Shown piece by piece: positions 8,711 to 52,766 of a stretch of 64,000 bases of DNA. Source of the stretch: an uncultured Bacillota bacterium. Lineage in GTDB: Bacteria > Bacillota_I > Bacilli_A > RFN20 > CAG-288. Under the pieces are notes generated by a model, which worked only from the letters and a program-made list of their open reading frames with translations, had not been told where the DNA came from and ran no database searches. Both the position numbers and the translations under genes were made by a program. The DNA is taken from positions 2,022 to 66,021 of the forward strand of contig CASDOO010000002.1 of NCBI GenBank assembly GCA_949282275.1. The letters are read 5' to 3'. How positions within the stretch are numbered: position 1 is the first letter of the stretch; each line of letters opens with the position of its first letter.

Positions 8711-9965
8711 GATTTTTTCCGTCGGCGAACTCTCCGAAATCCTCAAGGCCTGCTTTTCCAATCCCGGCTTCCAGCATTTGGCCGTCATGGGCGAGGTCTA
8801 TTCCATCAAGCTCGGCAAGTTTTCCTATCTCGAAATCGGAGACCAGGGAAAGGACCAGACTTCCTCGCCCCTTCTCAAATGCGCTTTCCGGACCCTGTAT
8901 GGCGATCCGTATGGACTTGGCGCCATCAAGCGCGGGGACGTCATCAAGATCGTCGGAAGCCTTTCCTATTATGCCCACGGTTCTTCCGTGACATTATGGG
9001 GCGAGGACATCGAGCTCGTCCAGACACAGCAAGGAAAAAGCTATCTCCAGAGACGAAAGACCCTGGAAAAGCTTGAGAGGCTTGGTTATCTCGACGAAAA
9101 AAGAAAAAGGCCGATTCCTTCCTTTTGCAAGAAGGTGGCTATCATAACGGCAAAGGATTCCGCGGCGTATTCCGACATCCGGAAGACGCTTCATGAGCGC
9201 TTCCCCGTCTCGACGGTCCTCTATCCGGCAACGGTCCAAGGGGAAACGGCCGCAAAAAGCATGCTGTCCGCCTTGAAGAAGGCCACGAAGGAGGACTATG
9301 ACTGCATCCTCTTGGGAAGAGGCGGCGGAAGCAAGACCGACCTCTCCTGCTTCGACGATGAAGGACTCTGCCTTGCCATCGCCACTTCCCCGATACCCAT
9401 CATCACCTGCATCGGCCACACCATCGACACGGCCATTGCCGACATGGTCAGCGACAAGAGGGCCATCACGCCGACGGAAGGGGCATCGCTTATCAATCCT
9501 TCCCTTGCCGATGTTCGCAAAGAGCACAAGGATTTGCGAAGAGACCTCGACGAAGCCTTCCTGGATCTTGTCGACGAGAAGGCCCAACAGCTTTCTTCCT
9601 TCATGGAGAGGCTTAAGGACCTATCGCCTGCACGACGGGCAAAGGAGAAGAAGGACATGCTCCTCCAGATTGAGAGCCAGACGGAGAAAGCCTATCTTGC
9701 CCAATTGGGACGGCTTATGACAGAGGTCATAGAATCCCGGGAAAGGATGCGCAAACTCTTCGCCTTGTTGCTGGACAGAGAGAAGGTAAGGCTCGAGTCC
9801 CTGAATGGGACAATAAAGGCCTATTCCCTGGACCATGTCGCAAGACAGGGCTATGCGATCCTTTTCAAGGACGGAAAGAAGATCACGTCCTCTGCCATGC
9901 TGTCTTCCGGGGACAAGGTTACGATCACCTATCCCGACGGCAGGAAAGATGCGACGATCGAATGA
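8691..9965 (+). CDS. xseA: exodeoxyribonuclease VII large subunit
   Basis: OB-fold N-terminus (IFSVGELSEILKACF...MGEVYS), a catalytic core, and a coiled-coil C-terminal region. The start could be ATG 8691 or ATG 8661; neither has a clear SD. Confidence 0.9.
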   Translation: MTSNPGRIFSVGELSEILKACFSNPGFQHLAVMGEVYSIKLGKFSYLEIGDQGKDQTSSPLLKCAFRTLYGDPYGLGAIKRGDVIKIVGSLSYYAHGSSVTLWGEDIELVQTQQGKSYLQRRKTLEKLERLGYLDEKRKRPIPSFCKKVAIITAKDSAAYSDIRKTLHERFPVSTVLYPATVQGETAAKSMLSALKKATKEDYDCILLGRGGGSKTDLSCFDDEGLCLAIATSPIPIITCIGHTIDTAIADMVSDKRAITPTEGASLINPSLADVRKEHKDLRRDLDEAFLDLVDEKAQQLSSFMERLKDLSPARRAKEKKDMLLQIESQTEKAYLAQLGRLMTEVIESRERMRKLFALLLDREKVRLESLNGTIKAYSLDHVARQGYAILFKDGKKITSSAMLSSGDKVTITYPDGRKDATIE

Positions 9966-13708: not shown

Positions 13709-14763
13709 TGGAAAAGAGAATCGTCCATATCGATCTTAACGCCTTCTATGTCCAGGCCGAATGCCTCAAGGATCCTTCCCTTGCGGGAAAGCCATTGGCC
13801 GTCGGCTATGACGGCAGGCGTGGCGTCGTATCGACCGCATCTTACGAAGCGCGCAAGTTCGGCGTCAATTCCGGTATGCCGATTTCAAAGGCAAAGGAAC
13901 TTTGCCCAAATCTTCTTATCATTAATTGCCATTTCAGTCTCTATCGGGAATTTTCGAACCGCTTCTTTGGCTATTTGCGAAAACGTTTTCCGATTCTTGA
14001 ACAGGCTTCCATCGACGAATGCTATATCGACATGACCAAGGAGACAGCAGGCGAGGACCTTGCCGTCTTCCTCTTTGACCTTCAGCTTTCCCTCTACAAG
14101 ACGACGAAGCTGAAATGCTCGATCGGCTGTGGCGCCAATCGATTCCTGGCCAAGATGGCAAGCGACATGAAGAAGCCCATGGGCCTGACGATCCTGACGC
14201 GGGACAACATAGTGGAAAGGCTCTGGCCCCTTGCCATCGGGAAGATGTACGGCATCGGAAAGAAGACGGCCCCGCGCCTGGAAAGCCTTGGCATATTGAC
14301 GATAGGCGACCTTGCCAAGACAAAGGACGAAGGCGTCCGCCGCCTTTTGGGCTCCCAGTTCGATTATTATCAGGGCGAGGCAAATGGGTGGGGAGACGAT
14401 GTCGTCGATACCTCTGCCTTCGATCCCAAGTCCTGCTCGGCGGAAAGGACCTTCCAGGAGGACGTGACAGGCTATGAGGAAGTCAAGGACATGATACGTT
14501 CCTGCTGCGAGGACGTCAGCCATGAATTGAAGAAATATTCCAAGATTGCCAGGATCGTCTCCGTCAAGCTGCGGGACGAGGGCTTTTCCACGCGCTCCCG
14601 TCAAAAGGCCCTTGCCTCGCCCTCAAACGAGGCCTCGGACCTCTTCTTTGCCGCCATGTCCATCTTCGACGCCTTCTATCGCGGCGAGAGCCTAAGACTG
14701 GTCGGCGTGACGGCCGAAAAGGTCTCCGATGTCGAAGAATCGGACAAGGAGGATGGGAAATGA
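13708..14763 (+). CDS. dinB: DNA polymerase IV (Y-family)
   Basis: [14 protein letters not shown]...[10 protein letters not shown]...SIDECYID motifs. The ATG overlaps the recN TGA (TGATG). Confidence 0.93.
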
Positions 14764-15677
14764 CCATACGCGAGGCAATCGAAGGCTTCCTGACCTATCT
14801 TGCCAGCGAGAAAGGCGACACGAAGAGAACACTGGACTGCTACACGATCGATCTGCTGGCCTTCGAGAAGATGACGAAGAAGGAAAGGGCGGAAGACCTC
14901 GACAGCCAGGACTATGTGGATTATCTTCTTCAACTTGCGGAACAAGGCCTTTCCAAGGCGACGCTAGTGCGAAAAGGAATGGCCCTTAGGGGACTTTATC
15001 GCTATCTCAAGATGGAAGGTAAGATCGACGTCCTCCTTTCCAACCTCAAGACGCCGGAAAAGGAAAAGAGACTCCCGAAGACATTGTCCGACGAAGAAAT
15101 CCGAAGGCTTTTCCAGTCCATCGAGACGGGCGACTACAAAGGCCTCCTGGACTTGACGATGATGGAACTTTGCTACAGCTGCGGACTCCGCGTGAGCGAA
15201 CTCGTCTCCCTGCGCATGGATCAGATCAACGTCAAGGGAAAGTACCTGAAGATCCTCGGCAAGGGAAACAAGGAAAGGATGGTTCCCATATCCCAGGAAG
15301 CCGATTCCTATCTCCAGCTCTACCTGAAGGAAAGGAAGACGAAAAGGAAGGCCGGAAAGATCCTTTTCCTCCACAAGGACGGAAAACCGACATCCCGCCA
15401 GTATTTTTTCCTAATGCTACGGAAAAGGGCAAAGGAGGCCGGTATAACGACGCCCGTCCATCCTCACATGCTTCGCCACAGCTTCGCGACGACGCTTTTG
15501 GAGAATGGCGCCCCGATAAGGCAGGTCCAGGAACTTCTGGGGCATAGCCAGGTGGAGACGACGATGATCTATACCCATGTCTCTTCCCGCCTCAAGAAGG
15601 AGGCCTATGACAGGGCAATGAATCGCCGTGCCAAATCCCAGGCGTCTTCCGACAAAGAAGACGCCAAAGCGGTATAA
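14760..15677 (+). CDS. xerD: XerD-like site-specific tyrosine recombinase
   Basis: Core-binding and catalytic domains with R (CGLRVSEL), HxxR (HMLRHSFAT), and H..Y ([16 protein letters not shown]). Precedes deoB as ripX(xerD)-drm does in B. subtilis. XerC versus XerD cannot be settled by eye. Confidence 0.85.
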
Positions 15678-17866: not shown

Positions 17867-18646
17867 ATGACAAATCGAAAAAAAGGAATCCGAGGATTCT
17901 TTCAAAGCAAGATCGTTCTATATGTCTTCGGACTTCTTTTCGTGATTGTCCTATGGGAAATCATTTCCTTATCGACGGGCCAATCGTTTCTTCCGGAATT
18001 CTTCTCCTGTCTCGCAAGGGCCTTTTCCATGCTGGCAATAGGAAGGACCTATGAGGCCATTGGTTATACGCTCCTAAGGCTTTTCCTGGCCTTGCTAGGG
18101 TCTGGCGTCGTTGGTATCCTTTTAGGAACGTTGGCAGGCTATTATCGGGCGCTGGAGACGTTTCTGCAGCCCCTGATAACTGTCCTTCGTGCCTTTCCGA
18201 CGGTCGCCATGGTGCTTCTTCTTATCGTTTTCGTTCCAATGGCTCCTGTATGGGTTGTCTCGTTTGTCGTTTTTCCAGTCCTGTATCAGGCTACGCTAGA
18301 AGGTTCCAGGCAGACTTTGGAAGCCTATTCGATGTTGATCCGATTGCGAGGAAAGAATCGCGTTTCGAACATTACCAAAGTCATATTGCCATTGTCCGTC
18401 GACAATATCAGTTTGGGTTTTGTCCAGGCATTGGGGCTAGGCATGAAAGTCGAAATCATGGCTGAAACGTTTTCCTATTCGACAAATGAAATAGGACTGG
18501 GACAAATGATAATGTCGAGTTATCAAACAGTGGATTACGAAAGGCTGATGGCCTTGGTATTGATTTCACTCTTTTTGATCTTGCTTCTGGAGGGAATATT
18601 GAAATTGGCAAAAGGAAAAATTCATAAACTAATTTTAGGCGAATAA
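17867..18646 (+). CDS. ABC transporter permease (binding-protein-dependent, NitT/TauT-like)
   Basis: 259 aa, about 6 TM helices, and an EAA-like loop region (LRGKNRVSNITKVILPLSVDNISLGFVQALGLGMKVEIMAE). Lower GC than the window average (about 37-50% in lines I counted). Confidence 0.75.
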   Translation: MTNRKKGIRGFFQSKIVLYVFGLLFVIVLWEIISLSTGQSFLPEFFSCLARAFSMLAIGRTYEAIGYTLLRLFLALLGSGVVGILLGTLAGYYRALETFLQPLITVLRAFPTVAMVLLLIVFVPMAPVWVVSFVVFPVLYQATLEGSRQTLEAYSMLIRLRGKNRVSNITKVILPLSVDNISLGFVQALGLGMKVEIMAETFSYSTNEIGLGQMIMSSYQTVDYERLMALVLISLFLILLLEGILKLAKGKIHKLILGE

Positions 18647-18698
18647 ATTAGAGATTGATTTGAATGCTATTTTGTGAAAATCGGCTGTGATTTACAAA

Positions 18699-18726
18699 TA
18701 GTAATTATTTGGTACTATTTAGTAAC
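18699..18726 (+). repeat. left copy of a 28-nt direct repeat (TAGTAATTATTTGGTACTATTTAGTAAC)
   Basis: Aligns with 18988-19015 with one indel on each side and 2 mismatches. Contains the GTACTA core. Confidence 0.8.
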
Positions 18727-18808
18727 TATATTTATTCAACTCTATATTAGTTATATTCTAGTACTAGAAATACACTATATTCACATAAGTGATTGACTTA
18801 TTGTTTTC

Positions 18809-18836
18809 TATTAACATAATAAACATTAGGCGAAGC
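18809..18836 (-). other. dif: candidate dif site (XerC arm - 6-bp spacer - XerD arm)
   Basis: Minus strand reads GCTTCGCCTAA-TGTTTA-TTATGTTAATA. This matches E. coli dif GGTGCGCATAA-TGTATA-TTATGTTAAAT at 22/28 positions (own alignment): XerD arm 9/11, spacer 5/6. Confidence 0.65.
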
Positions 18837-18987
18837 AATATAAACCGGCAAAATATAGTATTTTCCTGGTACTAATGTTTTACTGTGTTCATGATTCCTC
18901 TACTTCTTATATATTTCTTCTCAAATTGAAAAATTAAAATAGTTCATTTCCAGTACTATAAATGTACTATCCATGGACTATACTATT

Positions 18988-19015
18988 TAGTTAATTATTG
19001 GTACTATTTATTTAC
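18988..19015 (+). repeat. right copy of a 28-nt direct repeat (TAGTTAATTATTGGTACTATTTATTTAC)
   Basis: Direct repeat of 18699-18726. Overlaps the mtnN stop codon (19008-19010). Confidence 0.8.
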
Positions 19016-19691
19016 TAAGTTGCAATTTAATGATTTTGACAGCCAATGTCACCGCTTTTTTGCATGCCTCTCCCAAGCTTTCAGTGTATTGCTCTTCATT
19101 CCCTTCTTCTTCGGTGTCATCGGAAATCGTACGCAGGATGCCAAAGGGGATGTTAGCCATATGACAGCACTGACCTACGGCTGCCGATTCCATATCGATG
19201 GCAATAGGATCGTCAAAGTCTTTATCTAGACTCTTCGGCATATTTTCCTTCGTGACAAACAAATCGCCGGTCAGGACAAGCCCAAGGTGGATCTTGGAAT
19301 CCAATTGTCTAGACAATTCGCAAAAGCGAGGAGAGGCTTCGAAATAAAGCGGGTGATCTGCCATCTGGCCTCTCTTCATTCCCGGAATGTCGACATCATA
19401 ATAGGCGGCCTTCGTTGCGCAAAAAGCATCATATCTTTTCAGGCGATGCCGAATCGTCCCGGCGACGCCCGTATTGACGACCAAGTCATATTGGCGTTCC
19501 TGGACCTTCTTCCCAATCGAAAAGGCCATGGCGGTCTTTCCGATGCCGCCGCGCATCAAAGTCCAGAAAATGCCGTCGGAGATAACGCAAAAGGAATCTT
19601 TGCGATCCTCGATTCTCGTGGCTTCTTTGAAAGCTTCTTCGACGGCCTGCCATTCGTCATCCGTGGCTACGATGAGAAGGACGTTTTTCAT
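19008..19691 (-). CDS. mtnN: 5'-methylthioadenosine/S-adenosylhomocysteine nucleosidase (PNP_UDP_1 family)
   Basis: MKNVLLIVATDDEW..., GGIGKTAMAF, NTGVAGT, TGDLFV, IDMESAAVGQ, ILRTISD motifs. The ATG overlaps the rsfS TGA (ATGA). The upstream part of the 252-aa ORF was discarded. Confidence 0.8.
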   Translation of the reverse strand: MKNVLLIVATDDEWQAVEEAFKEATRIEDRKDSFCVISDGIFWTLMRGGIGKTAMAFSIGKKVQERQYDLVVNTGVAGTIRHRLKRYDAFCATKAAYYDVDIPGMKRGQMADHPLYFEASPRFCELSRQLDSKIHLGLVLTGDLFVTKENMPKSLDKDFDDPIAIDMESAAVGQCCHMANIPFGILRTISDDTEEEGNEEQYTESLGEACKKAVTLAVKIIKLQLSK

Positions 19692-20137
19692 TTCCTTTGG
19701 CTTGCCGGACGCGCACGCTTGCGATATTTCGGTTCGGTCTTGGCTTCGACAATGACATGCGGGCAATCCTCATAGAGGGCATCGAAGTCGACTTCCTTGC
19801 GCATCTCTTCGGTAAAGAGCTGGACGACGACTTGCTTGGCATCCAGAAGAATCCAGTTGGAATCATTGCGACCTTCCTTGTGATCCAGGTCGTAGAAGTT
19901 GTCGTAAAGACTTTCATCGGCAGCGGAAACAAGGGCCCTTAGGCGCCTGTCGTTCTGTGCCGAGGCAACGATGTAATAGCTGACATACGGTGTTTTCTTG
20001 CGGACATCGTAGACGATGACGTCCGTACCGTAGTTCCAGGAAAGATCTTCGGCAACATGGATGGGCCTGACGGCAGCGATCCTTCCCTTGTTCTGGAATA
20101 TTCTTTCTTTCTTGATGTTCTTTTTTGCGATACTCAT
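19688..20137 (-). CDS. rsfS: ribosome silencing factor RsfS (YqeL)
   Basis: 149 aa. YVSYYIVASAQNDRRLRAL...NWILLDAKQVVVQLF is typical of RsfS. Synteny yqeK-rsfS. Confidence 0.9.
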   Translation of the reverse strand: MSIAKKNIKKERIFQNKGRIAAVRPIHVAEDLSWNYGTDVIVYDVRKKTPYVSYYIVASAQNDRRLRALVSAADESLYDNFYDLDHKEGRNDSNWILLDAKQVVVQLFTEEMRKEVDFDALYEDCPHVIVEAKTEPKYRKRARPASQRK

Positions 20138-21090
20138 CTTTCATTCTCCTCGTTTAGATATCGGTCATACATGGCGGAAGAAAGCGTGTTCGTGTGGTAA
20201 TCCACGTGTATTCGGGCAAGATATTCGGCCTGTTCGCGGATTGTCATCAAAAAGCCCGCATGGATATCCTTCTTTGCCTTCTCGAAAATATGCCGCGTTT
20301 CGAAATCGCGAAGGGGCTCGCATTTGTCCGCACAGTAAAGCGTCTGCTCGAAAAGGCTCATGTCGCCTTTTCCGGTGCAATGGCAGGCGATGGCGGAAAG
20401 CACCTCCTTGTCCTGTATCCCAAAGGCCGATTCGGCCAGGAAGGCCCCGGCAAATTGATGCATCGAAAAGCCAGGATAGCCTTGATACTGTGGGAAGTGT
20501 TCCTTGACCAAGCGTCTTTGCAAGGACTTGTCCAGGTCCTTGGCCAAATCATGGAAAAGGCCGGCATGATAGGCTTTGATAGCATCCAGTCCGTTGGCTT
20601 TCGCAATCTCATAGGCCGTCTTTGCGACCGATACGGAATGCCGATAGCGGTCGGGCTGCATCATGAAGCTGATCTTGGAGGCAAAGAAAAGGGGATGATC
20701 GGCAATATATTCCAAGACAGGGAAGGGGGCCGACAGACGTCTCCCGGAACGGACATCTTCCTGCGCCTTCAGAAGCCCATGGAATACGGCAATCGATGTC
20801 GAAACAAGTCCGAGCTTCATCAAGACCTCGTCATCGCCGATGAAATCATAGTTTTCGGAGCGGACGAGGTCAACCACCTCTTCCGGATCAACCGAAATCG
20901 TTTTGATGTCCTTATGGCAAAGGGAAAGAATTGCTTCTATGTCGTTTTGCGACAGTGACGGGTCTTTGCGCCTTAGAATGCCAAAGACGACCTCTCTTCC
21001 CTTGTTTTCGGCCAAAAAGGAAGCCAGACATTCTTCGTGTCTGGCTGTCCACGGCGAAAAGGAATCCAAAAACAGAACCTTCCTTGTCAT
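20134..21090 (-). CDS. yqeK: fusion of a degenerate NadD-like nucleotidyltransferase domain and the YqeK HD-domain phosphohydrolase
   Basis: The C-terminal ~190 aa have HD motifs (RYRHSVSVAKTA...AGLFHDLAKD...ACHCTGKG). The N-terminal ~120 aa align to the NadD start, but GGTFDPPHNGH is replaced by LDSFSPWTARH. The ATG overlaps the yqeH TGA. Confidence 0.8.
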   Translation of the reverse strand: MTRKVLFLDSFSPWTARHEECLASFLAENKGREVVFGILRRKDPSLSQNDIEAILSLCHKDIKTISVDPEEVVDLVRSENYDFIGDDEVLMKLGLVSTSIAVFHGLLKAQEDVRSGRRLSAPFPVLEYIADHPLFFASKISFMMQPDRYRHSVSVAKTAYEIAKANGLDAIKAYHAGLFHDLAKDLDKSLQRRLVKEHFPQYQGYPGFSMHQFAGAFLAESAFGIQDKEVLSAIACHCTGKGDMSLFEQTLYCADKCEPLRDFETRHIFEKAKKDIHAGFLMTIREQAEYLARIHVDYHTNTLSSAMYDRYLNEENER

Positions 21091-22241
21091 TGTCCGATTT
21101 CGTTCTTCTCGCAAATGATCCTTACGCCATTGGGGGCGTAGACATCGATCTTCTGCTTTTCTCCGATGAAGTCAAAGAATCCCAACCCGACGATGCGGAC
21201 ACGATAAAGGACGTTTTCCTCGATGGAAATGGAAGTCTTCGCAAGATCGGAAATGTCATGGATCTTGCCGCTGCGGAAGCTAGCCTGCTCGTTTTCGCAA
21301 AGCATCCGGAAAGTCGCATCGGCCTTGGAAAGCTTGCATCTTTCAATCGTGATGTCATTGGACTTGTAGAAGGTCAAGTCGGCCTTTCCGCCCTCGACAT
21401 AGTCGATGCGGCAGAGATTGGAAAGCAGGAAGGACTGGCCGGCCTTCGTTTGGTATCTTTCCGGACGGATTTCGCTCCTGGGAATGACGTACTTGACGAT
21501 TTCCGGTTCGATGAAGGACACGATGCTCTTGGGGTTGTAGATGCCGGGTGTGTCGTAGATGTAGGAATCGTTGTCCAGCGGGATGGAAATGACGTCCAGC
21601 GTCGTTCCGGGATACGGAGAGGTCGTGATCATCTTTTCCGTGGAATTCTTGTATTCCTTGAGCAGTCGGTTGATAAGGGATGACTTTCCGACCTGGTAGG
21701 CGCCGATGAAATAGACACTCTTTCCTTTACGATGCCTTTCGATGGAGGCCATCATTTCCTCGATGTTCATGCCCTTGGAAGAAGAGGTCATGATCAGGTC
21801 GAGGACATGGATGTTCTCGGGTTCCAGCTTTTTCATGACGTATTTCCGCAGGAAATCATCCGAATAGGTCTTCGGAAGGACATCCCTCTTGTTGACGACG
21901 ACGATGACGTTTTCGGGAAGATATTTGCCGATGCCGTCCAGAAGGGCTCCCGTCAGGCAGAAGGCGTTGAGGACATAGACGACAAGCGCCCCTTCTTCCT
22001 TTGCCGATTCGAGGATAGTGACATAGTCGATGTTGAAGTCAGGCGTCTTCTTGTAGGTCGAATAATGCCGAAGCTTGTAGCAACGCTCGCAAAGGGTGTC
22101 CTCGCCGGATTCGAATTTCTCCGGAGGGACATAGCCGACTTCCTGAGGGTCGGTATCCTGAAGGATGGCTCCGCATCCATAACAACGGCGGACGCGGATT
22201 TCCTGGGTCACGCCACTGGCTTTGGTTCGCTTGAAGAACAT
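21087..22241 (-). CDS. yqeH: ribosome-biogenesis GTPase YqeH (circularly permuted)
   Basis: N-terminal zinc ribbon (CYGCGAILQ...CERCYKL). Permuted G motifs (VVVNKRDVL ... FIGAYQVGKSSLINRL ... DTPG). GGAGG SD before ATG 22241. Confidence 0.9.
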   Translation of the reverse strand: MFFKRTKASGVTQEIRVRRCYGCGAILQDTDPQEVGYVPPEKFESGEDTLCERCYKLRHYSTYKKTPDFNIDYVTILESAKEEGALVVYVLNAFCLTGALLDGIGKYLPENVIVVVNKRDVLPKTYSDDFLRKYVMKKLEPENIHVLDLIMTSSSKGMNIEEMMASIERHRKGKSVYFIGAYQVGKSSLINRLLKEYKNSTEKMITTSPYPGTTLDVISIPLDNDSYIYDTPGIYNPKSIVSFIEPEIVKYVIPRSEIRPERYQTKAGQSFLLSNLCRIDYVEGGKADLTFYKSNDITIERCKLSKADATFRMLCENEQASFRSGKIHDISDLAKTSISIEENVLYRVRIVGLGFFDFIGEKQKIDVYAPNGVRIICEKNEIGQ

Positions 22242-22786
22242 GATTTTACCTCCTCTGTATTTCTTTTCGGGCACTCGCTTCCGAGCAGGCCCTTGCGCCG
22301 CCAACCTTCGCGGATGCGCTTGTCGAAGAAACGGGGAATCTTGGTGACGAGATTGTCCTTTTCCGAGAGCGGTTCGGTCAGGACAAGACGGCCATGGAGC
22401 TGCTTGACGTAGAGCCTATCGGTATAGATCTGGTCGCCAATGAAGATGCAATCCTCGACCTTGACGTTCTGTCGCTTCAGGAAGCGCCGGACGCGGAAGG
22501 CGACATACTTGAAGGAAAGGCTCAGATAGGGGACGCCAAGGCTTTGGCAATAGCGACCGCAACGCTTCTCCGTGTTGTTGGAAAGGATGAATACCTTCAA
22601 GCCCATGTCCTGGTATTCCCTGAGAATTTTCCGTGCCCTTTCGGAAGGCTCTTCGACGTCGGCCGGGTCGAGCGTGTTGTCCAGGTCGAGGACGACGGCC
22701 TTCACGCCCAGTTGCCGAAAGAAGGACGGGTCGATATCGTAGATGCTTTTCGCATGGAAAGAGACTTTGCTTTTCGATTTGGGCAT
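22208..22786 (-). CDS. yqeG: YqeG-family HAD phosphatase
   Basis: VVLDLDNTL (HAD motif I), ILSNN, GDQIYTD motifs. Synteny yqeG-yqeH. Confidence 0.82.
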   Translation of the reverse strand: MPKSKSKVSFHAKSIYDIDPSFFRQLGVKAVVLDLDNTLDPADVEEPSERARKILREYQDMGLKVFILSNNTEKRCGRYCQSLGVPYLSLSFKYVAFRVRRFLKRQNVKVEDCIFIGDQIYTDRLYVKQLHGRLVLTEPLSEKDNLVTKIPRFFDKRIREGWRRKGLLGSECPKRNTEEVKSCSSSEPKPVA

Positions 22787-22792
22787 ATTTCA

Positions 22793-22801
22793 AGTATAGC
22801 A
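22793..22801 (-). promoter_or_regulatory. extended -10 (TGcTATACT) placed 6 nt before the yqeG ATG; leaderless-type promoter
   Basis: Minus strand reads TGCTATACT-TGAAAT-ATG with no SD. Confidence 0.45.
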
Positions 22802-22809
22802 GATATCCT

Positions 22810-25413
22810 TTACTTTTTGTCTTTTTCGAAGAGATCGAAGAGAGAAAGCTGGGTGTCGGCCTTGTCGACGCTGGCCTTGACCGGGCTGACCTTGACGACC
22901 TTGGGCGTCTCGATGGGGAACGAGGCGTCGATGACTTCGCCGAAATCGTTCCTGCCCTCCAGGAGGCTCTTTCCAAGTCCCGGTATGTTCTCGCGCATTT
23001 CGGAATTGAGCTCGACGGGGGCAAGCTCGCCCAGATCGATGACGACGTTCTGGTCTTCGCTGGTCGCGCTGACGACGTTCCTCTGGCCGCGCACCTTCTC
23101 GACCTTGCTCAGGGAAACGATGTTCATCGGGTTCTTCTTAAAGATGCGGACGAGGTTGGTCTTCGCCCCGAGCCTTTCTGTCGTCTCGATCTTCGTTGAG
23201 GAGACAAGCCTTGCGGCACGCCTGTCGGCAAGGATAAGAAGGAGGGAGGCCTCCTTGCTGGTCAGGGAGACAAGGGCGGAAAGCGGCGTGTTGTCGATCG
23301 TGGAGGAAATGGCCTTGACGCCCATGGCCCCAAGGGAGACAAGCGGAATGTCCGACTCGTTGAAGCGGCTTGCCCTTCCAAGGCCATCGCAGACGATGAG
23401 GTCGGAGTTGCCACTGGTCATTTCGACGCCGACAAGCGCATCGGCATCGTTGAGAAGCTTGCAGGCACGCAGGGTCCTCTTTGTCAGGCCGGATTGGCGG
23501 AATTCCGTTAGGGCCGTCCTCTTGATCTTGTTCTCCCGAGTCAGCATGACGACGTTGACGCCTTGACGGAATTCATCCAGGAGGAAGACACGAACGACCT
23601 TCTCGTTGGCCTTGAGCGTAAGAAGGTTGTTGAGATGCTTTCCCTCCTCCTTCCACTTGAGCTCCGGAAGCTGATAGACGGGAATGTAGCCATAGTTGCC
23701 CCGATCGGTAAAGAAGAGCAGGGAATCGTGGGTTGAGCATTTCCGACAGAAGACGATCCTGTCCCCGGGCTTGGTCTTCGGCAGGGGAACGATCTCGTCC
23801 TTGTTGGCATCGCAATAGGCCTGATAGGACTTGGGCGTCGTCCTCTTGCTGTAGCCATCCTCGGTAATGGCGACATAGCAGTCTTCCTTGGCGATGAGCT
23901 TGGTCTGGTCGACGGCATTGAAGACGAGCTTCTCGTCGAGGATTTGCGTCCTTCTCTCGCGGGCGAATTCCTTCCGGACTTCCTTGAGGCTCTTGACGAT
24001 TTCGTGATCGAGCTTCTCGGAATCGGAGAGAAGGCCCTTGAGCCTTTCGATGTCCTTGCGAAGGCTTTCGTCTTCCTCCCGCAGGGCGACGATGTCGGTA
24101 TTGGAAAGACGATAGAGAGGAAGCATGGCGATGGCTTCCGCCTGGTTCTCGGTAAAGCCGTAGTCCTCGCGAAGCATCTGCTTGACGGATTCCTTCCCGT
24201 GGCATTTCTTGATCTTGGCGATGACCTCGTCGACGATGGAATAGACCTTGACAAGGCCGGCGACGATTTCGAGCCGCTTCTGGTCCTGCCGAAGATCGTA
24301 TGCCGCCGTGCGGGTCTCGATTTCCCGCTGATGGTCGATATAGGCGTCGAGGATCTCAAGAAGCGGAAGGGTCTTGGGGTGTCCCTTGACGATGGCAAGG
24401 AAGTTGCAGGAAAGGTTGTTTCTCAGGCAGCCTTTCGACTGAAGGTAGTTGAGGACGTCTTCCGGACTGGCGCCCTTCTTGATCTTGATGACGATATGGA
24501 CGTCGTCCTTGGCGGATTCGTCGACGATTTCCTCGATGTTGTCGAGATTGTCCGTCTCCTTCCTTTTCGTGAGATTGGCGACGAAATCGATCTTGACGAC
24601 ACCGGTCGGAATCTGGTCGATCACGATCGTGTTCTCATCGTGGTCGATCGTGACATGGCTATAGACGGTCAGGGTCCCCTTTCCCGTCTCGTAAAGCGAA
24701 CGGATTGCGGCCTTGTCGTCGAGGATGCCGCCCGTCGGGAAATCGGGGCCCTTGATGAAGGCCATGATGTCATCGAGGTTGGCCCGGCGGTGCGTGATCC
24801 GGTAGATGGTCGCATCGATGACCTCGCCGAGATTGTGGCTGGGGATGAACGTCGTGCTTCCGACGGCGATGCCCTGCGTTCCGTTGACAAGGAGATTGGG
24901 GAAGCGTGCCGGAAGGACGGTCGGCTCGAGGGACTTGTCGTCAAAGGTCGGAACCATCTCGACGGTTTCCTTCTCGATTCCGCGGACGAGGTATTCGCTC
25001 AGTCTCGAAAGCCTTGCCTCGGTATAACGGTTGGCGGCAGCGGGATCGTCGTCGATGGAGCCGTTGTTTCCCTGGAAGTCGACAAGGGGCTCTTCCATCT
25101 TCCATCCCTGGGAGAGGTGGACGAGGGCATCATAGATGGAGGCATCGCCATGGGGATGGTAATGGCCCATGACATGGCCGACGATGGTGGCGCACTTGAC
25201 CGTGGGCTTGCTGTAGAGGTCGCCTTGGTCGAACATGTCGTAGATGATCCTTCGCTGGACGGGCTTGAGGCCATCGCGGACGTCCGGAATGGCGCGGTCG
25301 GTGATGACGGCCTTGGCATAGCGGTTGAAAGCCTGGATGAGGACATCGCTCATCTGGGAGGGAACGATGTCTTCGGCAGAAAGGATCTGTTCCTCTTTCT
25401 TCTTACTTTTCAC
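22810..25413 (-). CDS. parC: DNA topoisomerase IV subunit A
   Basis: [43 protein letters not shown] (the NNGS form is typical of Gram-positive ParC). Adjacent parE with divergent plsY as in Bacillus. GTG start preceded by AAGGAGG at 6 nt. ParC versus GyrA was called from motifs and synteny only. Confidence 0.88.
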
Positions 25414-27337
25414 GTTCTACCTCCTTGGTGAATGTATCCTTCGTCGTGAAGTCGATGTTGTTCTCGATCCAGTCCTTTCGCCGATCGGTGTCCTTGCCGA
25501 GGAAAAGATTGACCTTGTCCTTGCACTCCTCATCGTCCTGGATGAAGACGCGGAGCAGCTTCCTTTTCTCCGGAAGCATCGTCGTCGTGGAAAGCTGATC
25601 GTAGTTCATTTCGCCAAGACCCTTGTAGCGGTTGACCTTGTAGCCCTTGCCGATCGCCTGCTTGGCCTTTTCCAGCTCGGTATCGTCATAGCAGTAGATT
25701 TCCTTCTTGCCGTTGTAGACGCGATAAAGGGGCGGGCAGGCGATATAGACATGTCCCGTCTCGAGAAGCGGCTTCATGTGGCTGTAGAAGAAGGTCAGGA
25801 GGAGGGATTGGATATGGCTTCCGTCGTCATCGGCATCGGTCATGATGATGACTTTTCCGTAATGGATGTCCTTGACCTTGAAGTCGGAGTCGAATCCCGC
25901 GCCGATGGTATAGATGAGGGTCGCGATTTCCTTGTTTCCGAGAAGGGCCTTCTCGTCCTCGACGTCGGTGGTGTTCTTGGGCTTTCCGCGAAGCGGGAGG
26001 ATGGCCTGATGGCGGGGATCCCGGCCCTTCTTGGCCGAACCGCCGGCGGAATCGCCCTCGACGATGAAGAGCTCGTTGCGGAGGTAGTCCTTGCTGGAGC
26101 AGGGGGTCAGCTTGTCGGAAAGGTTGAAGGAGGAAATCTTGCTCTTGAGAAGCTCCCTTTCCTTGCGCCTTGCGTTTTCCGCTTGCACCCTGGCTTTCAT
26201 CTCGTCGGTCGTCTTCTTGACGACGGCGCTGGCTTCTCCGTCGTGTTCCTCAAGATAGTAGCTCAGCTTGCTTTCGACGACCTTGTCGACGGCATTGATG
26301 GCTTCCTTCGTTCCAAGCTTGCCCTTCGTCTGGCCTTCGAACTGAAGGAGATGCTCGGGAACCCAGGTGGAAAGGATGGCGACAAGCCCTTCCCTCAGGC
26401 AGTCCCCGTCGAGGGAATCGTTGCTCCGGATCTGCTTGTGGTTGATGGCATAGGAATTGAAGCAGTTGGTCAGGGCCTTCTTCAGGCCGGTGACGTGATA
26501 GCCGCCATCTCCCGTGCGGACGCCGTTTGCAAAGGAGATGATCTTCTCGTCGTAGTTGTCCTTGAGGAAGCCGAAGGTCACCTCGACCTTGATGCCATCC
26601 TCGCTCTTACCTTCGATGTGGATGGCGCTGGTCAGGCCATCCTTGCCCGCCGTGTGGCGGAGATAGTATTCCAAAAGGCCGTTTTCATAATAGAAATCCT
26701 GCTTCCGGCCGCTTCTTTCGTCCAGGAGGTGGAACGTCACGCCCTTCGTCAGGCAGGCCTGGTCATCGAGATGCTGGGCAATCCGGTCGAAGGAGAAATT
26801 GGTGTCCGAGAAAATCGAGCCGTCGGGAAGGAAGCGGACATCCGTTCCCCTTTTCGTCGTCGGCCCGAGGTCCTGAAGCGGGCTTGCCTTCTTTCCGCCG
26901 TTCTCGAAACGCATGAAATGGTCCCTGCCGTCCTTGAAGGAATGGACTTCCATCCAGACGGAAAGGGCATTGGTGACCGAGGCGCCAACGCCATGAAGAC
27001 CGCCGGCGCTCTTGTAGTTGCTTTCGTCGAACTTTCCGCCGCCATGCAGGGTCTGGTAGACGATCTGGAAGCCGTTCATCTTCTCGCGGGCATTGTAGTC
27101 ATAGGGAATGCCGCGTCCCTGGTCGCAGACCTCCAAGGAACCATCGTCGTGGATGGTCACGTAGATATGCTTTCCGTAGCCTTCGTTGGCTTCGTCGACG
27201 GCATTATCGACGATTTCCCATACGAGATGGTGGAGACCGACGGTATCCGTCGATCCGATATACATGCCAGGTCGTTCCCGAACCGGCTCGAGGCCATGGA
27301 GTACGGTCAGGCTTTTGGCATCATATTTATCGCTCAT
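25403..27337 (-). CDS. parE: DNA topoisomerase IV subunit B
   Basis: GHKL ATPase N-terminus (LHGLEPVRERPGMYIGSTD...HHLVWEIVDNAVDE) and a Toprim domain (ELFIVEGDSAGGSAK). Start set at ATG 27337, with GAGGTG 6 nt upstream; the ORF-track start 27346 is a GTG. Confidence 0.9.
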   Translation of the reverse strand: MSDKYDAKSLTVLHGLEPVRERPGMYIGSTDTVGLHHLVWEIVDNAVDEANEGYGKHIYVTIHDDGSLEVCDQGRGIPYDYNAREKMNGFQIVYQTLHGGGKFDESNYKSAGGLHGVGASVTNALSVWMEVHSFKDGRDHFMRFENGGKKASPLQDLGPTTKRGTDVRFLPDGSIFSDTNFSFDRIAQHLDDQACLTKGVTFHLLDERSGRKQDFYYENGLLEYYLRHTAGKDGLTSAIHIEGKSEDGIKVEVTFGFLKDNYDEKIISFANGVRTGDGGYHVTGLKKALTNCFNSYAINHKQIRSNDSLDGDCLREGLVAILSTWVPEHLLQFEGQTKGKLGTKEAINAVDKVVESKLSYYLEEHDGEASAVVKKTTDEMKARVQAENARRKERELLKSKISSFNLSDKLTPCSSKDYLRNELFIVEGDSAGGSAKKGRDPRHQAILPLRGKPKNTTDVEDEKALLGNKEIATLIYTIGAGFDSDFKVKDIHYGKVIIMTDADDDGSHIQSLLLTFFYSHMKPLLETGHVYIACPPLYRVYNGKKEIYCYDDTELEKAKQAIGKGYKVNRYKGLGEMNYDQLSTTTMLPEKRKLLRVFIQDDEECKDKVNLFLGKDTDRRKDWIENNIDFTTKDTFTKEVEREK

Positions 27338-48864: not shown

Positions 48865-49839
48865 TCAAAGGAGGATATCGCGTATGGTCAGCGTTTTACC
48901 GATGGCTTCGACGTCCTTCAAGGCCGCATCCAGGTATTCGGAGTCGTAGAAGATTTTCCTATAGACACGAAGGAAGTTCTTGTCCTTGGCGTTGGAAAAA
49001 GTTACCCGTCCTTCCCTGTTTCGTGCCTGAAGAAGCGGGAAGAGATAGTTCTCCGCCTCCTGAAGGGAAAGGCGCGGGAGAAGGTCGATGTTTCTTATGA
49101 ACAGCGCCGGAACGGTTCCGGCAGAAACCCAATCCTGGCGTGCCGCTTCCAATTCGGAAGGATCCTTGAGGACACGGAAAGCGCTAAGAAGGTCTTTCAG
49201 ATCGAGATAGGCCGTCTGGATTCCGCTCCTTGCAAAGAAATAGGCGCCGAAAGATAAGGCCATTTCAGGCAAAACATCGTTTCCCACAGGAACGAAAACA
49301 AGGCCACGGAAATCCTTTCCGGGATTCTCGCTTGCCAAAAGGATGTCCCCATAGGCAATTTGGACGTCCTTCATCTCCGGGCGCTCTTGGACAAGCTGGA
49401 GGAATTGAACCGCCTGGCGATAGATGTCATCGGCAGGAATGTCCATCGGGGATATCCTTGAAAAGACCTGTTCCTTTTCGCGCTGATAGGGACAGGGTTT
49501 CAAGGAAAGGGAAATCTCGTCGCAGCTTTCGTCAAAGGCAATCTCGCAGGAGAAGCCTCCCCTTTTCTTCGGGCAGGACAAAATGCCTTCCGAGCAGGCC
49601 CGGCAGATTTCGCGATCTTTCAGATAACTATAGATATTCCCGAGCGAATTGGAAAAGGTTTCCGGCGTTTTGCAAAGCGATTCAATCTTTGCCTTGGCAC
49701 GGGCATCCTGGCCAAGCAGGCGTTTCACCTCCAGGCGAAGAAGCTCGAAATCCCCTTCCGGAATCGATACGTTGCCTGGGAAGCTTCCCTGTTGGGAAGC
49801 CTTCATTTCGTCCAAACCCGATTTTTTGTCCTTTCTCAT
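48865..49839 (-). CDS. dnaI: DnaI-like helicase-loader homolog with degenerate AAA+ motifs
   Basis: Cys-rich N-terminal domain (CRACSEGILSCP...C...C). The C-terminal region is colinear with the DnaI AAA+ fold, but the Walker A position reads GLVFVPVGNDVLPE and the Walker B position reads ALFIRNID. ATGA-coupled to the upstream dnaB-like gene. Confidence 0.7.
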   Translation of the reverse strand: MRKDKKSGLDEMKASQQGSFPGNVSIPEGDFELLRLEVKRLLGQDARAKAKIESLCKTPETFSNSLGNIYSYLKDREICRACSEGILSCPKKRGGFSCEIAFDESCDEISLSLKPCPYQREKEQVFSRISPMDIPADDIYRQAVQFLQLVQERPEMKDVQIAYGDILLASENPGKDFRGLVFVPVGNDVLPEMALSFGAYFFARSGIQTAYLDLKDLLSAFRVLKDPSELEAARQDWVSAGTVPALFIRNIDLLPRLSLQEAENYLFPLLQARNREGRVTFSNAKDKNFLRVYRKIFYDSEYLDAALKDVEAIGKTLTIRDILL

Positions 49840-51050
49840 AGACGCACCTTTCTCTTAGCGGCCTCAAGTGCCTTTTCCTCCAGGGATTTGTCCTCGCCCG
49901 GACTCTCCTCCGGATTCGAAATGGCCTTCCGGCGCTTTTGGTTCTTTGCGGCCTTCTTTCCTGCATCCTGGCTGTTGAGATAGACCATGGCATCATAGGC
50001 GGAATGAATCTGGTCACCCAGAAGCGAATAGGCCACTTTTTCAATATAAAGAGGCGTGAACTTTCCGTCCGTCTTCTTCAGCGAGTAGTCCAGGACGACA
50101 TTGATGATGGCATTTTCCAAATGGGTGTTCCGGGAAAGCTTCTCGATTTCCTCGAGCATGTATTCCGGGGGATTGGCGTTGAGGCGATAGGCAAGATATT
50201 CCTGAGGCGACAAAGTCGAAAGGACGGAAAGGAGCTTTCCCTTATAGTTTTCCTTGGTCTCGTTTCTGGCAAGCGGACGATAGTCCTTGAAGACACGGAT
50301 ATCCTCGCGGAAGGAATCCATGTGGAAATGCCTTTCCGTATCCGTGTTCTTCTCGATGAGGGCCATCGCATCCTCTTCCTTTATCCCATAAAGGGTCGCA
50401 AGCTCGAGGATTTCCGGGAAAAAGCTCTTGCAGGCTTGCGTCAATCCGGCTTCCCGGACATAGTTTTGAAGCTTCCCGGAATCGAAATCGGAAACGTTTC
50501 GATAGGATTTATCCTCGAAATCAACCTCGTTTTCCTCGGAGTTCGTTCCTTCCAGGGAATAAACATCTCCGATTCGGCTGGAAACATCGACAAACCCTTT
50601 GGGGACCCTCTCCGAGTCTTTGAACAAGAATAAAAGTTCTTGGTAAGCCTTTTTGCCAACCTGTTGCTCGAGAAGATTTCGGAGAATGATGTCCGAAAAG
50701 AATTTCCGCGGGCTTGCCGGCGGGTACAGGCGGAAAAGGAAAGCGACACTCCGCTTTCCTTCCACAAGGCTCTCCTTCCGGAAAGAGGAAACAAGTCCAA
50801 TGGCCTCGAGACTGGAAAAAGCCTCAAGAATAGTGGAAGGACGAAAACCCAACGCCTTTTCGAGGTCCTCGAAAAAAAAGGCGCCCTTTTTGGTCATAAG
50901 GGGAGCAAGCGAAAACAAGTAGCGGTAAAGGGCGTATCCCGTCCCAGAAACGAGAGGCAGATAAAGAAGGGACAGGACCGTCTCATCCGTCTCGGAAAGG
51001 GTGAAGTGGCTTACGATCGTAAAAGAAGCATTTTTCTCAATGATTTTCAT
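49836..51050 (-). CDS. dnaB: replication initiation/helicase-loading protein DnaB (Bacillus type, DnaD-like domains)
   Basis: N-terminus ...LSLLYLPLVSGTGYALYRYLFSL...LEAIGLV...YPPASPRKFF. C-terminal DnaD-like repeat (INVVLDYSLKKTDGKFTPLYIEKVAYSL). dnaB-dnaI synteny. Confidence 0.75.
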   Translation of the reverse strand: MKIIEKNASFTIVSHFTLSETDETVLSLLYLPLVSGTGYALYRYLFSLAPLMTKKGAFFFEDLEKALGFRPSTILEAFSSLEAIGLVSSFRKESLVEGKRSVAFLFRLYPPASPRKFFSDIILRNLLEQQVGKKAYQELLFLFKDSERVPKGFVDVSSRIGDVYSLEGTNSEENEVDFEDKSYRNVSDFDSGKLQNYVREAGLTQACKSFFPEILELATLYGIKEEDAMALIEKNTDTERHFHMDSFREDIRVFKDYRPLARNETKENYKGKLLSVLSTLSPQEYLAYRLNANPPEYMLEEIEKLSRNTHLENAIINVVLDYSLKKTDGKFTPLYIEKVAYSLLGDQIHSAYDAMVYLNSQDAGKKAAKNQKRRKAISNPEESPGEDKSLEEKALEAAKRKVRL

Positions 51051-51057
51051 CCACTCG

Positions 51058-51066
51058 ATTATAGCA
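51058..51066 (-). promoter_or_regulatory. extended -10 (TGcTATAAT) placed 7 nt before the dnaB-like ATG; leaderless-type promoter
   Basis: Minus strand reads TGCTATAAT-CGAGTGG-ATG. Confidence 0.4.
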
Positions 51067-52745: not shown

Positions 52746-52766
52746 AAGGCAAAGGAGCATACAGGT

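Follow-up and report, generated by a model that had tools for sequence, protein, structure and literature searches.

A conserved array of 30-bp dyad-symmetric sites around dif in a clade of uncultured gut Bacilli

The dif site and its gene neighbourhood

In the window, which is the whole 64-kb stretch of DNA analysed here, an AT-rich non-coding island of 361 bp (positions 18647–19007) lies between two convergent genes. The island has a GC content of 25%, compared with ~55% for the genome, and is the sole stretch below 33% GC within the 64-kb window. On one side, an ABC-transporter permease gene (17867–18646, + strand) converges on the island; in other lineages, the position of this gene is taken by deoB or other genes. 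On the opposite side lies a PNP_UDP_1 (nucleosidase-like) gene (19008–19691, − strand), hereafter the PNP-like gene, whose 3′ end adjoins the array of sites described below. It served as the synteny anchor for locating the locus in every relative. A XerD-like tyrosine recombinase gene (14760–15677, + strand; Pfam Phage_integrase and Phage_int_SAM_1) is located 3.1 kb from dif and belongs to the gene order xerD-deoB(-ABC transporter)-dif, which is kept in relatives. In the relatives, xerD and parC/parE are positioned 1.5–3.5 kb and 4–8 kb from dif, respectively, and the flanking genes are likewise convergent. No second recombinase (XerC) is seen in the 64-kb window, and Pfam annotation of the whole window returns housekeeping genes only, with no member of the Tus, RTP, or MatP families.

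The core recombination site for XerC/XerD, dif, occupies positions 18809–18836 on the − strand. It consists of GCTTCGCCTAA (XerC arm), TGTTTA (central region), and TTATGTTAATA (XerD arm), corresponding to a layout of 11 + 6 + 11 bp = 28 bp with similar inner arm halves. When compared with reference dif sequences (PMC3025954), the site is identical to E. coli dif at 22 of 28 positions and to B. subtilis dif at 18 of 28. The match to E. coli dif, together with its conservation in relatives, indicates that the dif-like candidate of the initial annotation is a real dif. The site is found in identical orientation at 28 related loci, genes converge on it both in the window and in the relatives, and it is present in a single copy within the DNA retrieved. 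In addition, a conserved T-tract directly adjoins the XerD arm. GC skew across the window follows gene orientation and therefore cannot be used to place the terminus.

Other candidates for the content of the island were considered and rejected. A hidden small gene is not supported, since the three longest islands examined in relatives (0.9–1.3 kb) contain no ORFs. An RNA gene is not supported either, as the island has no Rfam match and no tRNA, and the folding z-scores are only −2.0 and −1.4. A replication origin was dismissed because the island lacks a DnaA box even with one mismatch allowed. Promoter-like matches in the window island are at the level of shuffled sequences (5 versus 4.1), and a terminator scan found no convincing intrinsic terminator there. 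Ordinary terminator hairpins are present inside the island in several relatives, but not in all.

A 30-bp element in five copies

Six copies of the hexamer GTACTA are found on the + strand, at positions 18712, 18761, 18869, 18953, 18964, and 19001, and the 9-mer TACTATTTA occurs three times, at 18713, 18981, and 19002, both as initially annotated. One extra GTACTA on the − strand, at 18759, is produced by the 10-bp palindrome CTAGTACTAG. This palindrome does exist, but its position is 18758–18767, one base to the left of that first given. The chance expectation for the hexamer, originally estimated at about 0.1, is 0.108 when recomputed from the base composition of the island. When the island is shuffled 20,000 times with its dinucleotide counts preserved, GTACTA has a mean of 0.25 and a maximum of 3 copies, and none of the shuffles reaches six. 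In the same shuffles, hexamers with both G and C never exceed 4 copies; therefore, the six copies of GTACTA survive correction for all hexamers. On both strands of the 64-kb window, seven of the nine GTACTA matches fall in the island.

GTACTA is merely the core of a larger element. The full element is a 30-bp dyad-symmetric site, TAGTA-N6-TAGTACTA-N6-TACTA, which is present five times in the island, on both sides of dif. It can be read as three 8-bp boxes at a spacing of 11 bp, i.e. one helical turn. The motif was defined from a GTAC-anchored profile of 175 GTAC-centred sites from 29 islands. The profile is dyad-symmetric, with TAGT at positions −13 to −10 mirroring ACTA at positions +13 to +16. 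The array had been described as co-oriented, with all copies in direct orientation. This description does not hold, since the profile shows a palindrome and the polarity of the sites about dif, judged from half-site asymmetries, is weak and inconsistent across species. The apparent co-orientation in the window species arises because the central box there is the TGGTACTA variant.

The five sites were scored with a matrix trained on relatives only, with a reporting threshold of at least 8 bits. Two of them are positioned on the XerD-arm side of dif. Site 1 (TAGTAATTATTTGGTACTATTTAGTAACTA, 18699–18728; 27.1 bits) is centred at about −109 bp from the dif centre, and site 2 (TAGTTATATTCTAGTACTAGAAATACACTA, 18748–18777; 24.7 bits), which includes the palindrome CTAGTACTAG, is centred at about −60 bp. 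Site 2 is the proximal site on this side, and it is both position-conserved and helically phased. On the XerC-arm side, site 3 (TAGTATTTTCCTGGTACTAATGTTTTACTG, 18856–18885; 19.7 bits) is centred at about +48 bp and is followed by site 4 (TAGTTCATTTCCAGTACTATAAATGTACTA, 18940–18969; 23.5 bits). An overlapping register, shifted by 11 bp relative to site 4 (18951–18980; 14.2 bits), accounts for the GTACTA at 18964. Site 4 and the shifted register together (18940–18980) make up a run of three 8-bp boxes spaced 11 bp apart, namely CAGTACTA, ATGTACTA, and ATGGACTA. Site 5 (TAGTTAATTATTGGTACTATTTATTTACTA, 18988–19017; 25.6 bits) reaches into the 3′ end of the PNP-like gene, covering its stop codon and final codons. 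The window sites are located 48–180 bp from the dif centre, and similar distances are found in most relatives. To the left of the window, the source scaffold contains no sites and no candidate regulator.

Sites 1 and 5 correspond to the left and right members of a pair that had been described as 28-nt direct repeats (18699–18726 and 18988–19015) bracketing dif. The two sequences are indeed similar, but they are not exact repeats, as 24 positions align with two single-base gaps. Nor are they a special bracketing pair; they are the two outermost of the five copies of the 30-bp motif.

Conservation, specificity, and phasing across relatives

Of 28 related species of uncultured Bacilli, 27 have their dif in this syntenic intergenic island between convergent genes, with sites on either side of it. 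The islands contain 3–7 sites each, with 47–48 bp as the commonest site spacing. The array is kept across ~27 species even though the flanking protein is only 35–77% identical, and one natural loss case is found among the related species, where UBA6879 has dif but no array. At positionally orthologous sites, the boxes are 81% identical, whereas the spacers are 42% identical (Fisher p = 1e-15).

In the sequence covered, the motif is specific to the surroundings of dif. In the 64-kb window, the only matrix matches of at least 8 bits are the sites of the island. In the relatives, 154 matches are located within 500 bp of dif, and the four outside this distance all lie in the unusually long island of one relative (L035). 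No match is found in 422 kb of flanking sequence from the relatives, which includes genomes of 26–35% GC that are as AT-rich as the island. There is also no match in 26 control loci of other taxa, mostly Clostridia (L040–L065). Comparison with the orthologous termini of relatives, which had been proposed as a check, finds conservation of the motif itself, of its concentration near dif, and of the way the sites are arranged. At the level of sequence, these comparisons show that the arrangement is under purifying selection and linked to dif throughout a broad clade of uncultured Bacilli from the gut. The core idea of the initial annotation, a predicted protein-binding array linked to the terminus and dif as opposed to chance or a generic AT-rich spacer, is supported by this conservation.

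On the XerD side, the proximal site is positioned at preferred distances from dif of ~40, 51, 61, 73, and 81 bp, with a mode at ~60–61 bp across species. The best-fitting period of these distances is 10.3 bp (R = 0.74; 0.62 on unique values, p ~0.003, a value that is optimistic because the species are phylogenetically related). Helical phasing relative to dif is seen on the XerD side only. The site-to-site spacing has a clear mode at 47–48 bp, but its periodicity is not significant after removal of duplicate values, and site-to-site helical phasing is therefore not relied on.

The outermost sites are positioned at the ends of the flanking genes. On the side of the PNP-like gene, the outermost site overlaps or adjoins the stop codon in 24 of 27 species. 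On the opposite side, it is located at a stop codon in 15 of the 27 species, despite differences in the gene found at that end.

A pattern scan of metagenomes (at least 120 loci) independently found at least five further arrays linked to dif. The remaining metagenome matches listed are unrelated and comprise antitoxin operators, 11-bp satellites, and phage-like loci. Thirty viral contigs have one isolated match each, with no array and no dif, and an origin of the array from a phage or an integrative element was rejected for this reason. In the literature, we found no description of a dif-flanking array or of this motif.

Comparison with known systems and possible roles

The initial annotation had likened the GTACTA core to RTP-binding Ter sites of B. 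subtilis. There are indeed common features. Both types of site are associated with the terminus, occur in the class Bacilli, span ~30 bp, and contain the heptamer GTAC(T/C)AA. In B. subtilis, a Ter site is occupied by four RTP monomers (PMC10331603), a number that the four half-sites of an array element would also fit. However, when authentic TerI and TerII from DNA adjoining an rtp gene are scored with the array matrix, they reach −5.2 and −3.1 bits, respectively, compared with 19.7–27.1 bits for the five window sites, indicating that the array does not belong to RTP/Ter. In accordance, the best island match to the Ter consensus KMACTAANWNNWCTATGTACYAAATNTTC, which has 0 and 1 mismatch to the real TerI and TerII, is mismatched at 9 of the 22 specified positions. 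There is no RTP gene (PF02334), which usually adjoins a Ter site, in the 64-kb window. For the relatives, tblastn with an RTP query verified against PDB entry 1BM9 finds none in the 9 kb around dif. A global search yields 88 RTP clusters, all with an identity of 45% or more to B. subtilis RTP; those with a named source are all from Bacillaceae. The architectures differ as well. Ter sites are asymmetric, with A and B sites, act in a polar manner, and form opposed groups over a large region, whereas the array sites are palindromic, have no consistent polarity, and lie within ~250 bp of dif. Membership in RTP/Ter was therefore rejected. Taken as a whole, the earlier interpretation keeps its array tied to the terminus and dif, but loses the all-direct orientation, the RTP/Ter resemblance, and the separate 28-nt repeats.

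Plasmid systems offer another comparison. At cer (ArgR/PepA) and psi (ArcA/PepA), accessory DNA lies beside the core site for XerC/XerD, with recombination presumed to be governed by a higher-order complex; it is FtsK-independent and selective for resolution. The accessory sequences are ~180 bp long, located on the XerC side only, plasmid-borne, and bound by general regulators through ARG or ArcA boxes. The array resembles these systems in that its predicted protein-binding DNA directly adjoins a Xer core site, and its helical phasing suggests a similar physical coupling. In contrast, the array is chromosomal, extends on both sides of dif, has its constrained site on the XerD side, and consists of a new 30-bp palindrome, which we take to be unlike ARG or ArcA boxes.

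The terminus organiser MatP, which has a ribbon-helix-helix fold and can bridge DNA, binds palindromic matS sites that occur only in the part of the terminus surrounding dif. The sites described here are likewise palindromic and placed around dif. However, a matS site is 13 bp long (GTGACRNYGTCAC), and such sites are dispersed over ~800 kb in enterobacteria, whereas the array consists of 30-bp composite sites clustered in 0.4 kb, in a window with no MatP family match. Short palindromic boxes about one helical turn apart are also found in the operators of ribbon-helix-helix proteins (Arc, MetJ, omega, ParR centromeres, and antitoxins). These operators are cooperatively bound, but they sit in promoters or plasmid centromeres, whereas the array sits at gene 3′ ends around dif. 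One locus of the metagenome scan (L203) contains three copies of TAGTACTA at 11-bp spacing as the promoter operator of an unrelated antitoxin gene, which encodes a ribbon-helix-helix-like protein as judged by eye from the sequence. The same box grammar in this operator suggests that such arrays can be protein operators. Finally, XerD-binding sites (XDS) are concentrated near dif, resemble its XerD half, and act on chromosome organisation by unloading SMC at the B. subtilis terminus. The array likewise places extra predicted protein-binding sites near dif in a member of Bacilli, but its motif has no similarity to either dif arm.

We propose that the island is a dedicated cis-acting platform, an operator array for a putative oligomeric protein whose complex is coupled to XerCD/dif, and we assign this reading a probability of about 0.4. 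Each site would be cooperatively bound by an oligomer of a putative sequence-specific protein; the spacing of the boxes would accommodate two or three dimers on a single face of the helix, in the manner of ribbon-helix-helix proteins or small winged-helix proteins. With its sites filled, the ~400-bp AT-rich island would become one nucleoprotein complex, and this complex would be physically coupled to XerC/XerD at dif. The coupling is suggested by the proximal site on the XerD side, which keeps to one helical face ~60 bp from the centre of dif and is separated from it by a T-tract bend. Coupled in this way, the complex would assist Xer recombination as an accessory structure. Holding or pairing of sister dif regions could be one of its functions, and control of the strand exchange initiated by XerD another, with the result that dimer resolution takes place when and where it should. 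Against this proposal, no gene for the binder was identified in the 64-kb window, and we know of no chromosomal dif site that needs accessory sequences. The accessory sequences of cer and psi lie on the XerC side alone, whereas the array has sites on both sides with the constrained one on the XerD side, and the helical phasing is likewise limited to one side. In addition, a search for the binder through autoregulated copies of the site gave no candidate among the metagenome matches listed.

Several other roles have to be weighed against an accessory complex for Xer recombination. The array could be a terminus organiser or anchor, i.e. a small-centromere-like cluster similar to MatP/matS or ParB/parS that leaves the Xer reaction itself untouched, with a bound protein that bridges sister dif regions, tethers them to the division site, or stops or unloads SMC. 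A tight cluster specific to dif, palindromic sites suited to dimers or tetramers bridging two duplexes, conservation over the whole clade, and the syntenic division and decatenation genes parC and parE nearby would all be consistent with such a role. We nevertheless consider it unlikely, since anchoring alone leaves the helical phase of the proximal site with dif unexplained, there is no MatP-like or ParB-like gene in the window, and the sites of known terminus organisers are dispersed over hundreds of kilobases. Pausing of replication forks is distinctly unlikely. Here, proteins flanking dif would slow the forks and lead to their fusion, leaving the last-replicated DNA at dif, as a non-homologous analogue of Tus/Ter or RTP/Ter. 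The array does lie at the convergence point of gene orientation, it flanks dif on both sides, its 30-bp sites with four half-sites would fit four subunits as in B. subtilis Ter, and the heptamer GTACTAA is common to the Ter core. However, known fork traps are polar, whereas these sites are dyad-symmetric without consistent mirror polarity about dif, and a non-polar block on both sides would hinder the replication of dif itself. The mismatch of the motif with real Ter sites, the confinement of source-named RTP homologues to Bacillaceae, and a GC skew that follows gene orientation in the window and so cannot place the terminus are further points against this role.

The outermost sites at the stop codons of both convergent genes fit a boundary or roadblock role equally well. 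Proteins bound there would end the convergent operons and shield dif from RNA polymerase and supercoiling. The frequent placement of the outermost sites at stop codons on both sides, even where the gene differs, and the lack of a convincing intrinsic terminator in the window island are consistent with this role. One site per side would be enough for it, yet 3–7 are kept, internal ones included; several relatives have ordinary terminator hairpins in the island too; and in compact genomes a functional array is expected to adjoin genes anyway. As the full explanation of the array, a transcription boundary thus has slim odds. An ordinary operator of a local transcription factor, serving the flanking nucleoside-metabolism or transporter genes, or a small RNA in the island, is very improbable. 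Sigma-70-like hexamers are found within the island, and the PNP-like gene and deoB share one pathway, but both flanking genes end rather than start at the island, and the array stays while the gene on one side changes between lineages. The shuffle-level number of promoter-like matches, the lack of an Rfam match, the modest folding z-scores, and the ORF-free long islands of relatives also argue against a local operator or small RNA. The notion that the sites are non-functional repeats, left by local duplication, by a mobile or Xer-exploiting integrative element, or by chance in AT-rich DNA, retains next to no probability. The outer sites of the window are alike at 24 of 28 positions and AT-rich DNA is prone to repeats, but the conservation data already contradict this notion: the motif is conserved while the spacers have diverged to near-random similarity, and the array is found at a fixed syntenic locus in 27 species. 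In addition, the observed count is never reached in shuffles, and the matches in viral contigs are isolated, with neither arrays nor dif.

In well-studied systems, to our knowledge, chromosomal dif is regarded as a bare 28-bp site that is controlled externally by FtsK translocation and distant organisers. A conserved, dif-specific, and helically phased array would represent a different solution, namely a local nucleoprotein machine at dif, and if the proposed mechanism is true, this would be the first chromosomal dif dependent on accessory sites. The 30-bp consensus, together with ~30 natural variants and one natural loss case, provides a precise bait for a new terminus protein. The host clade comprises small-genome gut Bacilli that are abundant in animal guts and have never been cultured, and the array can serve as a precise sequence landmark of dif and of the terminus within the fragmented metagenome-assembled genomes of this clade. 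Judged from sequence, the array, which about 30 related species have in common, points to a putative protein managing the chromosome terminus. In model bacteria, dimer resolution and the terminus are controlled by FtsK, MatP, or Tus/RTP. Tentatively, and with odds somewhat short of even, Candidatus Enterosoma and its relatives may use a dedicated DNA-binding protein on a phased dif array that partly controls dimer resolution or terminus handling.

The dif site and its surroundings

An AT-rich island of 361 bp (18647-19007; 25% GC versus about 55% GC for the genome) stands out in the 64-kb window, which nowhere else falls below 33% GC. The genes on its two sides converge on it: on the + strand one for an ABC-transporter permease (17867-18646), and on the - strand one for a PNP_UDP_1 nucleosidase-like protein (19008-19691). 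Positions 18809-18836, read on the - strand, are GCTTCGCCTAA-TGTTTA-TTATGTTAATA, identical to the dif sites of E. coli and B. subtilis at 22/28 and 18/28 positions, respectively; both reference sequences occur verbatim in PMC3025954. Judged from its sequence, this is a genuine dif. The T-tract abutting its XerD arm is conserved. The window island has no DnaA boxes, Rfam and tRNA searches gave no match, no convincing RNA structure was found, and the three longest relatives' islands checked contain no ORFs.

A XerD-like recombinase gene (14760-15677), with a phosphopentomutase gene after it, lies 3.1 kb from dif, and parC and parE are located 4-8 kb from dif on the side opposite xerD. Across the clade, xerD is just 1.5-3.5 kb from dif in the order xerD-deoB-dif, and parC/parE are found at 4-8 kb on the opposite side (window 14760-15677 and 22810-27337; fetched loci L009-L039). 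The recombinase gene is likewise linked to its own site in the XerS and XerH systems. Despite this linkage, the arms of dif suggest the involvement of two recombinases.

The sign of the GC skew follows gene orientation over the whole window, with C exceeding G on the coding strand. It lacks a single clean switch, so the terminus cannot be placed by skew in this genome fragment. Pfam annotation of the window gives housekeeping genes only, with no member of the Tus, RTP, or MatP families. Three consecutive large ORFs of 324, 404, and 1458 aa (48865-55592, - strand) match nothing in Pfam but a weak DnaB_2 domain in the 404-aa protein. DnaB_2 domains are associated with replication initiation and membrane attachment.

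A 30-bp palindromic element

The initial annotation described an array of GTACTA motifs in the island, and its coordinates are correct: the hexamer occurs on the + strand at 18712, 18761, 18869, 18953, 18964, and 19001, and the 9-mer TACTATTTA at 18713, 18981, and 19002. Base composition predicts 0.108 GTACTA by chance, in agreement with the initial annotation's estimate of about 0.1. When the island was shuffled 20,000 times with dinucleotides preserved, GTACTA had a mean of 0.25 and a maximum of 3 copies, and no hexamer with both a G and a C exceeded 4. The palindrome CTAGTACTAG is real, although it lies at 18758-18767 rather than where it had been placed. The two 28-nt direct repeats are alike but inexact, with 24 aligned positions and two one-base gaps.

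To derive the motif, every GTAC within 450 bp of dif was taken as an anchor (n = 175 sites), and the flanks were tabulated. The profile is dyad-symmetric, with T,A,G,T at -13 to -10, T,A at -2/-1, the GTAC itself, T,A at +4/+5, and A,C,T,A at +13 to +16, separated by spacers of nearly pure A/T. The element is TAGTA-N6-TAGTACTA-N6-TACTA, 30 bp in length. One possible reading is as three 8-bp boxes at 11-bp spacing, the outer boxes being conserved in their distal halves only. GTACTA then forms the right half of the central box, the recurring GTACTA-N5-nnACTA combines the central and right outer boxes, and the left outer box is an upstream TAGTA that the initial annotation left unconnected. The sites had been described as all direct. 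The element is dyad-symmetric, and the apparent co-orientation arises because the central boxes in this species are mostly the variant TGGTACTA; over all the species, both TGGTACTA and its mirror image TAGTACCA are present, with no consistent polarity of sites about dif.

We built a 34-bp log-odds matrix from the relatives only, with an AT-rich background. In the window, scores of at least 8 bits occur at the six GTACTA positions and nowhere else in 64 kb. The matrix defines site 1 (18699-18728), site 2 (18748-18777), site 3 (18856-18885), site 4 (18940-18969, with an overlapping register at 18951-18980), and site 5 (18988-19017).

Conservation and specificity of the array

Across a broad clade of uncultured Bacilli, the dif array of this 30-bp palindromic operator is conserved, evolves under purifying selection, and is highly dif-specific in the DNA scanned. 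Metagenome contigs match the window at >99.9% identity. Syntenic loci in GTDB species representatives were found by aligning homologues of the PNP-like protein, giving 28 species-level relatives, including four loci from assemblies, with PNP-like proteins 35-77% identical to that of the window. The GTDB representatives are all uncultured Bacilli from gut-type samples, Candidatus Enterosoma merdigallinarum among them. In 28/28, dif lies just 3' of the PNP-like gene in the same orientation, in an AT-rich non-coding island between convergent genes. The ancestral gene order is likely PNP-like gene, dif, deoB, xerD, dinB, recN, with the ABC transporter inserted in the lineage of the window. In three relatives of that lineage, identity at positionally orthologous sites is 81% over the 18 box positions and 42% over the 12 spacer positions (Fisher p = 1e-15), the latter value being nearly random for this base composition.

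The matrix finds 154 matches within 500 bp of dif in the relatives and 4 beyond, all within the unusually long island of one locus (L035). It finds none in 422 kb of the relatives' flanking DNA, including several genomes of 26-35% GC whose flanks equal the island in AT-richness. The 26 control loci (other taxa, mainly Clostridia) and another 5.8 kb of the source scaffold past the window are also free of matches. The initial annotation had named equal frequency of the motif in other AT-rich spacers as counting against it; in the fetched DNA, the motif is not equally frequent elsewhere.

Each island carries 3-7 sites, lying on both sides of dif in 27/28 species. Centre-to-centre spacings are most commonly 47-48 bp, with lesser peaks at 36-39 and 58-59 bp; site-to-site periodicity is not significant after removal of duplicate values. 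On the XerD-arm side, the distance between the proximal site and the dif centre is about 61 bp for 11 species and about 40, 51, 73, or 81 bp for most others. These distances fit best to a period of 10.3 bp (R = 0.74; 0.62 for unique values, p ~0.003). No helical phasing of the proximal site is found on the XerC side.

L037, the locus of Bacillales bacterium UBA6879 (26% GC), keeps dif and has no full site. Degenerate TAGTA repeats are seen on its XerD side, left of dif (~8830-8910 of the reverse complement). It is a case of natural loss or decay, of use for tracing the binder through gene-content comparison.

L005, a contig from another sample, differs from window 18513-24840 by 3 mismatches only up to ~21900 and by 10-33% per 200-bp bin from 21913 on; the break, inside a yqeH-like GTPase gene, could be a strain recombination breakpoint or a chimeric assembly. 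In L025 (2061-2681), a gene for a 206-aa AbiEi-type-antitoxin-like protein beside the dif island, transcribed away from it, is suggestive of a mobile insertion at the terminus that is specific to this lineage. In the source scaffold past the window's left end (L216, 16300-18454), rpsD is followed by a GC-rich, structured-looking stretch and then, at the scaffold end, by AT-rich DNA that holds a coiled-coil-like ORF of 155 aa and encodes a 308-aa protein faintly matching HNH; the region may be an integrated element.

Comparison with known systems and possible roles

The initial annotation noted a resemblance to RTP/Ter. Four RTP monomers bind Ter (PMC10331603). Ter and the array sites are both ~30 bp and share the heptamer GTAC(T/C)AA, and the four half-sites of an array site would fit four subunits as for RTP on Ter. 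The overlap is limited. In an rtp locus from a B. subtilis-group genome, the Ter consensus fits two inverted sites located upstream of rtp (0 and 1 mismatch). With the array matrix, these authentic sites receive scores of -5.2 and -3.1 bits, and everywhere in the island at least 9/22 specified positions of the consensus are mismatched. In tblastn with an RTP query identical to PDB 1BM9, no locus has a match within 9 kb of dif, and a database search returns 88 RTP clusters, each sharing 45% or more identity with B. subtilis RTP and from Bacillaceae in every case with a source name. By matrix scores and consensus mismatches, the array is not an RTP/Ter system.

Exact-pattern scans gave 30 isolated single matches in viral contigs and, among the 120 metagenome loci listed, at least 5 further dif-linked arrays; the others listed are unrelated (11-bp satellites, phage-like loci, and toxin-antitoxin operators). 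In L203 (1000-1035), an antitoxin gene, ribbon-helix-helix-like by eye and followed by a RelE-like gene (also by eye), has three TAGTACTA boxes, spaced 11 bp apart, in the stretch that separates its -35 element from its start codon. By analogy with this antitoxin promoter, such a box grammar would serve small cooperative DNA-binding proteins. An unrelated metagenome contig has the same three boxes and spacing (L151, 1431-1460), and in L148 (5845-5880), a Phd/YefM-like antitoxin gene (family by eye) is preceded by one full TAGTACTA box and, 11 bp further along, a TACTA half-box. Tandem satellites with an 11- or 33-bp period on TAGTACTA, TACTACTA, or TAGTA (L147 8350-8800, L190 3050-3305, L209 1030-1170, L097, and L185 9600-9720) matched only through their periodicity; the L185 repeat, in 24%-GC DNA at the end of a contig, comprises three or four complete copies of the 30-bp motif with a period of 33 bp. 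Neither the window annotation nor the scan matches listed yield a candidate binder for the dif array.

A putative oligomeric protein would occupy the sites, and the occupied island would form a single nucleoprotein complex. We tentatively favour (probability about 0.4) a coupling of the array to the XerCD/dif reaction, as accessory architecture for pairing and/or controlling XerD-initiated exchange. The sole observation that discriminates between models is the conserved helical phase of the XerD-side proximal site, which implies physical contact with the dif complex. A terminus anchor or SMC-related organiser is unlikely, and a non-polar zone of fork pausing is quite improbable. A transcription boundary shielding dif is supported by the outermost sites, which overlap or abut the stop codon in 24/27 species on the PNP side and, despite the differing gene, in 15/27 on the other, but we consider it improbable too. 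There is very little likelihood that the array is a local transcriptional operator, and hardly any that the repeats are non-functional.

The array belongs to a known class, the cis-acting protein-binding arrays at specialised chromosomal loci, and differs from all those described in motif, arrangement, and taxon. No description of such a dif-flanking array was found in the literature. If the sites are indeed accessory to XerCD recombination, this would be the first chromosomal dif of such type.
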